This document shows, piece by piece, positions 13,998 through 52,514 of a stretch of 64,000 nt of DNA. The DNA comes from Eledone cirrhosa (Eukaryota), in the NCBI GenBank assembly GCA_964016885.1, contig OZ024740.1, positions 185,256,001-185,320,000 of the forward strand. The letters are read 5' to 3'. Within the stretch, counting starts at the first letter, position 1. Every line of letters starts with the position of its first letter. The notes beneath the pieces are model-generated. The model did no database searches. It had not been told where the DNA came from and saw only the letters and a list, made by a program, of their open reading frames with translations. Both the position numbers and the translations under genes were made by a program.

Positions 13998-14240
13998 ATG
14001 AAGAGAGAAGAAACATTTAGATATAATTAGTAATAAATTGTATCATACCTAAACTGCTCCTAAATTTTTTTTTTTTTATTACTAATTATATCTAAATGTT
14101 TCTTCTCTCTTCATAATGTATTTTTTACTCTGATACTGGTTCAGTCTAGTTCAACTGAATTGGTCTGTCCCAGTCATTCATTGAGCAACATCGGTGAAGT
14201 TGGCACCCTTAACTCACAGTTGGGTGCGGATGCATTCATG
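13998..14240 (+). mobile_element. TA-embedded fragment, family C, with ~41-bp 5' inverted arm
   Basis: tatgaagagagaagaaacatttagatataattagtaataaa and its reverse complement ending at ~14115; extended ACUC-UGA...UCA-UU-GAGC hairpin at 14127-14186. Confidence 0.55.
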
Positions 14241-14305
14241 TATATATGTGTGTGTGCGCATGTATCTGTGTGTTTCTAAATATATTATATATATATATAT
14301 ATATT

Positions 14306-14556
14306 TATAGTATTAATTATACTATTAATAGTTATGTAAATACAAAAACCTTATGCAGTTATATGTATTTTTTATACAAACCCTAAATAGTGGTAGGCAG
14401 TAATGTATTAACTACCTTATTACCAGTAAGTTAAGTAGCTCAATGTAAACACATCAGATGATTTACAGAGCAGTTATATGAAATATAAGAATCAAAGAAC
14501 TGTTCAAAACAGCACAATAATGTTTTGAACAGTTCTTTGATTCTTATATTTCATAT
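14306..14556 (-). mobile_element. Solo fragment of the PLE2 terminal repeat with inverted arm
   Basis: 14306-14511 matches 50971-51171; 14511-14555 matches 52289-52334 in the opposite orientation. Confidence 0.9.
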
Positions 14557-14630
14557 ATATTTATATATATATTTATATATATATTTACATATATATATTT
14601 ATATATATATATATATATATATATATATAT

Positions 14631-14915
14631 TGTTATACTTTGGGAGGGTTATGTTGCCAATAAGAAACACACGCACCAGTTGCTTTCACTTCAATTTATT
14701 ATATATTTATAAATTTATAAATTTACAAATCTACAAATTTATAAATTTCTGGTTGGTTGGTTGGTACCACAACCAGATAGTTGTTTATATATAGTCATAG
14801 TCCTTTTGTCACACACTCTGTGACCTCTTCAGTGACTGGGGATTCCTTTCTTTGTTTCTGTGCCTTTCCTTTCTTCTGTCCTACGCCATTTTCAAAATGG
14901 CGTAGGACAGAAGAT
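14631..14915 (-). mobile_element. Family B copy with terminal hairpin; hammerhead at 14793-14837 has a mutated GAAA
   Basis: Homology to the 13521 and 18377 copies; ends in tcttctgtcctacgccattt/aaatggcgtaggacagaaga fold-back. Confidence 0.78.
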
Positions 14916-15428
14916 ATATTTATATATATATATTTATATATATATATATATATATTTATATATATATATATATATATTTATATATATATATATATATATA
15001 TTTATATATATATATATATATATATTTATATATATATATATATATATATATTTATATATATATATATATATATTTATATATATATATTTATATATATATA
15101 TATATATTTATATATATATATATATTTATATATATATATATATTTATATATATATATTTATATATATATATATTTATATATATACATATCGTAACTCATA
15201 ACAACAATACGGCACAATTATACCCATTTGGTCTACATATGTTCTTATATTTAATATAGAAGTTTATCTAGTGTAACATTTATTTGATATATTTGGAGCA
15301 TCAACTTTTAGGGTAGTTTAATTTTTCATGAAGAATGTTTAAAATAAAAATAAAAAGAAGAATAAAAAGAAGAAATCGAAAGATTTATCGGCTAGTTTCA
15401 TAAATAATTACAAATCAAACTAAATATA

Positions 15429-50928: not shown

Positions 50929-51173
50929 ATTGGCAATATTATATGTCAGCTCAACGATATGGAGCAGTTAATAGTATTAGTTATACTATTTATGGTTATG
51001 TAAACACAAAACCTTAAGCAGTTGTAAGTATTTTACACACACCCTAAATAGTGGTAGGCAGTAATGTATTACTACCTTATTACCAGTAAGTTAAGTAGCT
51101 CAATGTAAAAACATCAGATGATTTACAGAGCAGTTATATGAAATATAAGAATCAAAGAACTGTTCAAAACATT

Positions 51174-51226
51174 ATTGTGCTTACAGCTGTTTCCTCCAAA
51201 CCGAGGTTTGGATTCTTCGGAGCAAT
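51174..51226 (-). ncRNA. PLE2 hammerhead variant, 5' repeat
   Basis: Same as 46975-47027. Confidence 0.75.
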
Positions 51227-52243
51227 TTATTAATGCATGGACAGTTATATGACCTCCTTTTCAGCCGAGAGACATACCAACACATATTCAAACATTGATA
51301 CATATTCAAACATTGTGGGTCAACATTCATTACAGAATTTAGAGTGGCAGTACACACTTCTAGATTACATTTATATTAATAGGTACAATCAAAAATCAAA
51401 GATATAGGTTAAAGTACAACATGAAGATAAGTGGTTATATAGTGCAAATGTTATATGTATGGCACGCATGTGCGTCTTGTTTATATAGTGTGGCAGAGAG
51501 ATATGTGTGGTAGAGGCACTTAGGTAGGTAAATAAGAGTGTTAGGTTGGTAGATCTGGTGGCAAAGTCTTTATATGATTGATATAGTCTGTGTGTGGAGA
51601 AATATTATAAGCATTAAAGATAGTGCAAGCATTAAAAGTGTTATAAGTATTGGAGATGCACAGGGCAGGGATGTCAAGAAATTCGTGTACTTCGGCATTT
51701 TCATGGTCAAGGGAGTGTATTTTTCGATTATATGCCTTTCACATAATCCACGACAATCCAGTTAGAGATCGTAGTCTGGTGTTCTTTAGTTCGATACAGG
51801 TGGTTGTTACGTTTCGAGAAACGCCATTGAATACCGGAAGTGTGTGTGTGGCTAAGGGGAGTTAATGCATGCGGGGAGGTAACTCTGGGGTTTCTATATC
51901 TAGCCATTAAAATGTGTCCCAATATAGACCCTAAATTCTATGGTGAGGTGCACCTTCCAAGAGAGACTTTTAAAGCATAAAGTGTACTAACAAGACGCAC
52001 ATGCGTGCCATACATATAACATTTGCACTATATAACCACTTATCTTCATGTTGTACTTTAACCTATATCTTTGATTTTTGATTGTACCTATTAATATAAA
52101 TGTAATCTAGAAGTGTGTACTGCCACTCTAAATTCTGTAATGAATGTTGACCCACAATGTTTGAATATGTATCAATGTTTGAATATGTGTTGGTATGTCT
52201 CTCGGCTGAAAAGGAGGTCATATAACTGTCCATGCATTAATAA

Positions 52244-52296
52244 ATTGCTCCGAAGAATCCAAACCTCGGTTTGGAGGAAACAGCTGTAAGCACAAT
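52244..52296 (+). ncRNA. PLE2 hammerhead variant, inverted arm
   Basis: Same motif on the plus strand. Confidence 0.75.
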
Positions 52297-52514
52297 AATG
52301 TTTTGAACAGTTCTTTGATTCTTATATTTCATATAACTGCTCTGTAAATCATCTGATGTTTTTACATTGAGCTACTTAACTTACTGGTAATAAGGTAGTA
52401 ATACATTACTGCCTACCACTATTTAGGGTGTGTGTAAAATACTTACAACTGCTTAAGGTTTTGTGTTTACATAACCATAAATAGTATAACTAATACTATA
52501 TATATTTATATACT

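Follow-up and report, generated by a model that had tools for sequence, protein, structure and literature searches.

The 64,000-nt stretch of Eledone cirrhosa DNA analysed here (the window; contig OZ024740.1 of assembly GCA_964016885.1, positions 185,256,001 to 185,320,000) is (TA)n-rich eukaryotic DNA and contains two Penelope-like elements (PLEs), PLE1 and PLE2, whose ends fall just before a short bulged hairpin that is present twice in the leader of each element. PLE2 consists, in this order, of an inverted arm (51989–52499, +), an upstream pseudo-long terminal repeat (pLTR; 50968–51991, −, delimited by repeat comparison) carrying a hammerhead and both hairpins, an open reading frame (ORF; 48469–50967, −, ATG at 50931) for a reverse transcriptase (RT) with a C-terminal endonuclease, and a downstream pLTR (46938–47792, −). 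The two pLTR copies (51137–51991 and 46938–47792) showed 100% identity over 855 nt. The hammerhead motif of PLE2 (51178–51224, −; further copies at 46979–47025, −, and 52246–52292, +) has the core CCGAAGA...GAAA with a C in place of the canonical U, and the ribozyme is a motif-based prediction with a putative cut between 51182 and 51181. Hairpin 1 (51098–51131, −) is a bulged stem with a U:A pair above a UU bulge, and hairpin 2 (50949–50965, −) was recognised by motif and predicted fold. The downstream pLTR of PLE2 ends 5 nt before the would-be hairpin 1 (site 1), and its inverted arm ends 5 nt before the would-be hairpin 2 (site 2). In PLE1, identified from the ORF list and clade motifs, the ORF (15429–17648, −) is preceded by a hammerhead motif read by eye (17818–17883, −; not listed by the motif scan), an ACUC/GAGU variant of hairpin 1 (17750–17769, −) and a hairpin 2 supported by motif and predicted fold (17663–17679, −). 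The order hammerhead, hairpin 1, hairpin 2, ATG is thus the same in both leaders. PLE1 further has an inverted arm (17950–18127, +) ending 5 nt before hairpin 1 and a solo pLTR fragment (22434–22641, +) ending 7 nt before hairpin 2.

Each element has a single ORF (735 and 820 amino acids) encoding an RT followed by a C-terminal GIY-YIG-type endonuclease, with none at the N-terminus: a YRDD RT core precedes IY...YVG, an invariant R and conserved E and N residues. The Hydra clade of PLEs was defined by the motifs RWK, DKT, CxCX5C, CxxC and CxH, a hammerhead and (TA)n targets (Craig et al. 2021, PMC8557442). Both ORFs contain RWR and DKT (RWK and DKT in the consensus of homologues), a CxCX5C linker (CNCRANRTC and CNCRDRSKC), and CxxC (CNLC and CDLC) and CxH (CQH and CKH) motifs flanking the conserved E and N; a hammerhead motif is present in the pLTRs of both, and, as the initial annotation had stated, the listed ends all adjoin TA runs. 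Named Hydra proteins share these motifs when compared by inspection, unaligned, and the relevant parts of PMC8557442 describe the same motifs, (TA)n insertion, a hammerhead in the pLTR and direct and inverted pLTRs as in PLE1 and PLE2. Judged by these sequence features, PLE1 and PLE2 are Hydra-clade PLEs. No Pfam family matched either ORF at a significant or useful score, and the endonuclease call therefore rests on motifs. Among 8000 candidates scored, 95 homologues of PLE2 were found, and the viral contigs searched yielded no relative. The structural model of PLE2 (mean pLDDT 84.5) had telomerase reverse transcriptases (TERTs) as its closest solved folds, the predicted likeness being remote (TM about 0.3, 10–15% identity). 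The PLE2 protein contains two low-confidence inserts rich in Asn and Ser (residues 485–535 and 626–675; window about 49355–49515 and 48940–49090, −), which are reminiscent of the asparagine-rich inserts described for Adineta Penelope elements (PMC3846280).

Both hairpins share the bulged motif RCUC-Y...R-UH-GAGY(ACU). Its distribution was determined in related loci collected with a 47-protein alignment, comprising 78 metagenome-contig loci (from the best 80 of 361 matches) and 9 genome-contig loci. Upstream of the ORFs of these loci the strict motif occurred 76 times in sense and 3 times in antisense orientation in 13.4 kb, compared with a mean of 1.06 and a maximum of 4 in 100 shuffles and with 28 occurrences in 182 kb inside ORFs. 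Two strict hairpins were present in 29 of the 37 references spanning hammerhead to ORF, at regular distances: 42–67 nt (about 54) from the hammerhead GAAA to hairpin 1, 55–74 nt (about 62) from hairpin 1 to hairpin 2, and 55–92 nt from hairpin 2 to the first protein motif. The hairpin spacing is 90 nt in PLE1 and 166 nt in PLE2. A reference-free scan found a hammerhead core in 40 of the 51 loci with enough downstream sequence. Nine loci (L079–L087) are Hydra-clade PLEs with TA microsatellites in records filed as bacterial metagenome-assembled genomes, which are most likely animal host DNA in the bins.

The stem of the hairpin covaries. When hairpins were anchored only on CTC and T-N-GAG, with no selection for pairing, the pair above the 2-nt bulge (pair 5) was C:G in 47, U:A in 23, U:G in 3, C:A in none and another combination in 3 of the 76 distinct hairpins; pair 6 was formed in 49 of them (33.5 in shuffled sequences), and the bulge was UU in 56, UC in 14 and UA in 6. 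On a 28-row tree built from related loci only, with no named Hydra references, pair 5 switched 4 times (4–5 in bootstraps) among proteins that were 43–100% identical. Other compensatory forms were a U:A at pair 1 (L033, L049) and an A:U at pair 3 (L083). The stems are predicted to fold in their context (mean pairing probability 0.67 over 63 hairpins), also in both window elements, and ACT follows the stem in 69 of 78 hairpins. Among the 150 Rfam matches listed (of 177) for window positions 13000–53000, none reached the gathering score, and most fell in microsatellite-like stretches.

The same hairpins lie at the same places in Hydra-clade consensus sequences published in the supplement of PMC8557442, to the extent that these were available. 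The consensus of Hydra-1_Ajap begins 2 nt upstream of hairpin 1 and runs out in a TA-like stretch. For Hydra-1_Crog the start lies 6 nt upstream of a compensated hairpin-2 variant and the end lies beyond a variant of hairpin 1. The consensus sequences of Hydra-2_Amil and Hydra-2_Ajap end after one hairpin, and that of Hydra-1_Amil ends before any hairpin. Three exact 9-base forms of the motif were found at 6 places in the portion of this supplement covered, 4 of them in Hydra leaders and 2 in coding sequence of other elements, a count in which line breaks can hide matches. Taken together, these data indicate that a duplicated hairpin at the putative start sites is general to the Hydra clade and occurs more often than expected by chance. 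The words "hairpin" and "stem-loop" are absent from the main texts, as far as available, of PMC8557442, PMC3846280, PMC7229834 and PMC4209133. Neither a description of the motif nor a signal fixing two RT starts was found in the PLE literature searched, a scope that leaves aside subscription papers and Repbase notes. The elements themselves thus belong to a known clade, the hairpin being the new part and apparently undescribed so far.

Each end listed in the window was mapped on a copy that continues past it, the gap being the number of nucleotides from the last matching base to the first base of the hairpin. The PLE2 end at 46938 and the PLE2-like end at 14557 had gaps of 5 and 3 nt to hairpin 1 (51131), and the PLE2 end at 52499 and the PLE2-like end at 14306/7 had gaps of 5 nt each to hairpin 2 (50965); the PLE1 arm (18127) ends 5 nt before hairpin 1 (17769) and the PLE1 solo copy (22641) 7 nt before hairpin 2 (17679). 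For the non-coding families, the gap was 5 nt for family F (20983) and family D (45612), 11 nt for family C (13997) and family A (13515), and about 0 for family E, the copies of which are too diverged for an exact value. In total, 8 of the 11 listed ends had gaps of 3–7 nt, 2 had gaps of 11 nt and 1 a gap of about 0. The end coordinates given for PLE2, PLE1 and families F, D and C in the initial annotation were right within 1–2 nt, which corresponds to the ambiguity within TA runs, and the gap of about 20 nt that it gave for family A shrank to 11 nt once TA microhomology was counted. For family E, its placement of the end directly before ACUC held, and its pairing of this ACUC with a GAG near 20308 did not: that short hairpin was rejected, the partner being an AUUGAGU that ends at 20140, in a predicted bulged stem closing about 170 nt. 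Two further cases, which the initial annotation did not mention, do not fit the pattern. The 3' end of PLE1 (about 15222) has no downstream pLTR and is joined to a fragment of a long interspersed nuclear element (LINE; 15188–15221, 34 nt) that is 97% identical to 3609–3642 in a LINE-type RT element (1694–3831). Another hammerhead family (13521–13892, 14631–14920 and 18378–18637) has ends at one site (13521, 14633 and 18380) and one end 20 nt short (13892), with no hairpin between these 20-nt-apart ends and no continuing copy in the window.

Ends in the related loci were distributed in the same way. With strict ungapped mapping, 21 of 32 ends lay 0–6 nt before a hairpin (mode 3) and 26 within 13 nt. 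The set of 32 derives from 36 candidates after removal of 5 artefacts of inverted or internal repeats (L011-, L078-, L047- and two in L027) and 1 duplicate insertion (L056), with L087- remapped to a closer reference and 3 rows taken from an earlier mapping of 22 candidates; 6 of 70 references were dropped as false starts or for want of pLTR continuity. The number expected at 0–6 nt was 1.2 under a uniform null, 2.8 when a TA-like suffix of at least 2 was required, and 10.5 under the strictest TA null (suffix of at least 3, leader only; p = 1.5e-5). The ends therefore cluster by the hairpins and not at TA-rich sites alone, as had been proposed from the window. TAT or ATA was present at positions −10 to −3 in 74% of 81 hairpin contexts and in 22% of background 8-mers. 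In 37 of 61 cases the last such triplet stopped 3 or 4 nt short of the stem, whatever the length of the hairpin. The gap was tied more closely to the 5' base of the stem (SD 2.6 nt) than to the stem 3' end (SD 4.5 nt), without correlation with hairpin length. This start patch is predicted to be more open (0.64–0.74) than the background (0.46). Two recurrent ends lie downstream of the hammerhead and bound an optional tail. Weak support also came from the first TA-like run after the hammerhead core, which lay at 40–66 nt in 8, at 101–144 nt in 8 and at 12–18 nt in 2 cases, some of these runs being internal patches. Contigs from public sequencing runs were also compared with positions 47793–51988, which gave 18 loose ends among those listed and 252 more outside this list. 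Contigs from two studies (X1 and X5) break at 50971, the site-2 junction, and in another (X6) a TA run is joined at 51135, the site-1 junction. The summed contig depth of X2, which is not equivalent to copy number, was about 7,000 on the ORF side and climbed across the two sites to 41,000, then 155,000 and 174,000.

We consider it likely that ends lying 2–7 nt before the duplicated bulged hairpin reflect a signal, probably an RNA fold, that binds the telomerase-like RT and sets the start of copying at the UA-rich patch. In such a pathway, the endonuclease would nick (TA)n, the protein would dock on a transcript that is circular or longer than one unit, at the hairpin of its downstream pLTR, and the 3' end of the nicked TA strand would pair with the UA patch, where copying would begin, so that the adjacent hairpin is never copied. 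As a start 5' of the hairpin leaves it uncopied, the hairpin would exert its effect within the template RNA, where the bound protein would keep its active site a few bases upstream, on the open UA patch. The choice between hairpin 1 and hairpin 2 would then yield an end without or with the tail, that is, the spacer between the two sites. A precedent exists in the Poseidon element PAc of Anolis carolinensis, for which RT was shown to have two internal start sites, which coincide with the genomic ends and delimit the tail, to require the RNA 3' of the start, and to be accompanied by cutting and extension of both target strands, a dimer being predicted (Frangieh et al. 2024, PMC11167929). The PAc sites lie downstream of the hammerhead, as here, and given this in vitro precedent the ends described here are most likely RT starts. 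PAc belongs to another clade, whereas the putative starts in the Hydra clade occupy a target-like UA patch of the leader, on the 5' side of a covarying hairpin that is present twice. The proposal of the initial annotation that the hairpin marks the RT start is, in this sense, well supported by the genomic ends and by the Anolis analogy. In telomerase, a protein-bound RNA element places a short template that pairs with the 3' end of a DNA primer; the repeated copying of a short template by telomerase is not implied for PLE2.

Several observations weigh against a hairpin acting as RT start signal in RNA. The support for RT starts in the Hydra clade is genomic rather than biochemical, and the Anolis start lies inside an AC-rich stem-loop without target homology, whereas an open UA patch 5' of the stem is found here (PMC11167929). 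Six of the 32 ends were off-site (25–86 nt before a hairpin, or with none downstream) and 5 more lay at 11–13 nt, 3 of which were at 3, 3 and 5 nt under gapped mapping. One of the listed loose ends of the public contigs was off-site at 51178, and Hydra-1_Obim lacks a clear canonical hairpin in the part of its consensus covered. As the 32 ends come from related families, probably with shared hosts, the p-values overstate independence. The whole leader of PLE1 folds no better than shuffles (z −0.76), and the pair statistics do not distinguish the strand of folding: G.U pairs outnumber A.C pairs by 16 to 9 (p = 0.23), and antisense folds are about equally good. Moreover, the start of about six copies, preceded by a TA run, falls at one of these sites (L002 at 965, L005/L043 near 470, L039 at 981, L078 near 3020, L087 near 3860 and window position 18251), which are thus used as 5' junctions or DNA targets as well. 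These copies, among them a tail-only copy and others apparently of unit length, fit circular RNA templates, TA microhomology or insertion into older pLTRs; unit-length copies of circular RNA have been proposed (PMC4209133). The 5' junctions, together with pair statistics compatible with folding of either strand, also speak for a motif that acts in DNA, where the endonuclease would recognise a duplex, a cruciform or single-stranded cDNA and cut at the preceding TA patch, making the ends cleavage or resolution points of an intermediate or insertion sites in older pLTRs. In agreement with this alternative, Craig et al. ascribed the tail to endonuclease-mediated resolution (PMC8557442), and according to Frangieh et al. 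the Penelope endonuclease needed the tail for recognition (PMC11167929). Against it, the spacer between the half-sites varies (hairpins of 16–34 nt, 60 nt in family C and about 185 nt in family E), as would be expected of a fold more than of duplex recognition; simple splitting of old copies would leave right and left halves in equal number, whereas 26 3' ends stand against about 6 5' starts; contig depth in X2, which does not measure copy number, was about 20-fold higher on the hammerhead side; and the Anolis ends proved to be RT starts. On balance we regard a DNA motif as the main alternative, though an unlikely one.

TA content is part of the signal and does not explain the ends alone. If it did, ends would form at any patch able to pair with nicked (TA)n, and the hairpins would serve translation or RNA packaging; the enrichment of TAT/ATA before the hairpins agrees with this, and some off-site ends also run into TA (L009, L015). 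The TA-weighted nulls, however, accounted for 2.8–10.5 of the 32 ends where 21 were observed, and the patch, held 3–4 nt from the stem, is tied to the hairpin, which leaves TA content as sole cause with a very small probability. We give even less credence to a core promoter, in which a TATA patch would be followed about 25–30 nt on by an initiator-like CACT and the ends would coincide with it solely through the likeness of TATA to the target. A TATA plus an initiator-like sequence was reported for an Adineta pLTR (PMC3846280), and ACT commonly follows the stem here. A TATAWAW consensus was found within 25 nt before the hairpin in only 8 of 78 cases, the spacing is fixed to the 5' base of the stem and not to CACT, and PLE1 and PLE2 lack CACT; these results disfavour the TATA/initiator reading, under which the covariation would also go unexplained.

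The hairpin as RT start signal also bears on the inverted arms. Both ends were readable in 13 inverted insertions, 8 in the window and 5 in related loci. In 11 of them the ends were offset (by 73, 20, at least 140, 169, 66, 77, 166, 71, 63, 74 and 64 nt), and in 2 they were symmetrical (L081 3752–7561 and L085). Seven offsets were 63–77 nt, near the hairpin spacing of relatives, and two PLE2 offsets equalled the PLE2 spacing. The excess of different ends over an independent 50:50 choice was significant (one-sided p = 0.011; p = 0.033 for 9 of 11 insertions in motif-bearing families). As initially noted, the two arms of PLE2 and of the PLE2-like inverted mini-insertion (14306–14557) end at different sites, the left arm of the latter at site 2 and the right arm at site 1. 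In families A, C, D and F a second hairpin is not visible and site 2 is therefore inferred. The tail is carried by the inverted arm in PLE2 and by the main body in L084; one-ended tails have been described before (PMC8557442, PMC3846280). Its length differs from the 30–40 bp reported for the Hydra clade in the consulted part of PMC8557442, the tail here being equal to the hairpin spacing.

In L1 twin priming, two primers on opposite target strands give rise to an inverted 5' part; each cDNA copies its own stretch of a single RNA, with no overlap, and the position of the second site is free. Here, by contrast, the two arms repeat the same pLTR sequence, and each starts at a fixed site. The arms are head-to-head with both 3' ends joined to the target, as in twin priming, and overlap by 42–508 nt in the window. 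The twin-priming model of the initial annotation is plausible and only partly supported: the arms end at different sites in 11 of 13 insertions, but both arms copy the same sequence, and in 2 insertions both ends lie at one site. Since both arms copy the same pLTR, L1-type twin priming would fit only if strands were displaced, if the template were circular or multimeric, or if two RNAs took part. We tentatively suggest that two RTs may load on one RNA at the duplicated docking hairpin, resulting in programmed double priming: the first RT would use hairpin 1 for a start on one of the nicked TA strands, its partner would use hairpin 2 for the opposite strand, copying the tail and displacing the cDNA of the first, and a stall of the partner at site 1 would leave a tail-only copy. 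The offsets would be accounted for in the same way. It is also conceivable, with comparable reserve, that the inverted arm arises by fold-back or self-priming of a single cDNA or from an antisense template, with a stop set by TA microhomology or a cut. Fold-back was proposed for Adineta Penelope from junction palindromes (PMC3846280), and it fits the facts that the arms cover the same sequence, that the PLE2 arm is 100% identical to the adjacent pLTR and that both ends lie at one site in the two symmetrical insertions. A DNA-templated arm, however, needs a separate reason for stopping 3–7 nt before the hairpin, both target strands were cut and extended by the Anolis protein in vitro (PMC11167929), and in one case the arm (14511–14557) starts where the hammerhead is predicted to cut (51182/51181 in PLE2), like a run-off copy of a cleaved RNA. 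Other inversion junctions, inspected by eye, were not at the predicted cut.

Several short families in the window also carry motif-type hairpins. Inverted insertions were found for family A (13327–13515; hairpin 13373–13388, −; arms offset by 73 nt), family C (13997–14255, right end uncertain; long hairpin 14127–14186, +, with an A.C mismatch in a base pair), family D (45612–45784; hairpin 45713–45736, +; offset 77 nt) and family F (20983–21945, with arms at 20983–21111 and 21751–21945; hairpin 21885–21905, +; offset 66 nt). A tail-only copy of family D (18172–18251, −) covers the stretch between site 1 and the end that it has in common with 45784, and has TA runs on both sides. The family E tandem (19326–20572, −) has the long-loop hairpin form (20325 to 20140) and comprises two units of about 250 nt, each bounded by motif halves about 170 nt apart, with no clear hammerhead; its link to Hydra elements is not established. 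Families A, D and F resemble non-LTR retrozymes, which are short non-coding hammerhead pLTR derivatives found in long tandem arrays, and differ from them in being inverted insertions; the available parts of the retrozyme papers name no start signal (PMC7229834; bioRxiv 10.64898/2026.07.22.740005). Elsewhere in the window, an element at 57073–58166 (−), the coding part of which was not identified, combines a hammerhead-like core with a motif-type hairpin at 57161 and ends in TA about 68 nt after the hairpin, as expected for a site-2 end. A lone motif-type bulged hairpin follows a TA-like patch at 25838–25863 (−), with no hammerhead found nearby. A further hammerhead family (37120–38152 and 33834–34286) has a tandem unit of about 420 nt, inverted arms offset by 71 nt and a two-ended tail; it has no strict Hydra hairpin and probably represents a different PLE lineage. 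Finally, an element at 1139–1714, between TA arrays, has direct repeats of 110 nt and a hammerhead on the + strand with its cut near 1415.

The origin of the PLE tail and of the inverted pLTRs is an open question, which the hairpin would make testable. Craig et al. called for an in vitro PLE system (PMC8557442), and the single in vitro study located two starts and named no signal for them. A clade-wide duplicated hairpin at a fixed distance from both ends provides the exact bases to mutate, swap and move. For annotation, the hairpin offers a rule for the boundaries of Hydra elements and for assigning non-coding hammerhead families to the elements that drive them. Should double priming at the two hairpins be correct, a single event would give head-to-head arms with a one-ended tail, by a telomerase-like mode of binding the stem and aligning the primer. 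As PLE enzymes are the sister group of telomerase, a stem that places the primer-pairing patch would bear on the origin of telomerase-type template use.

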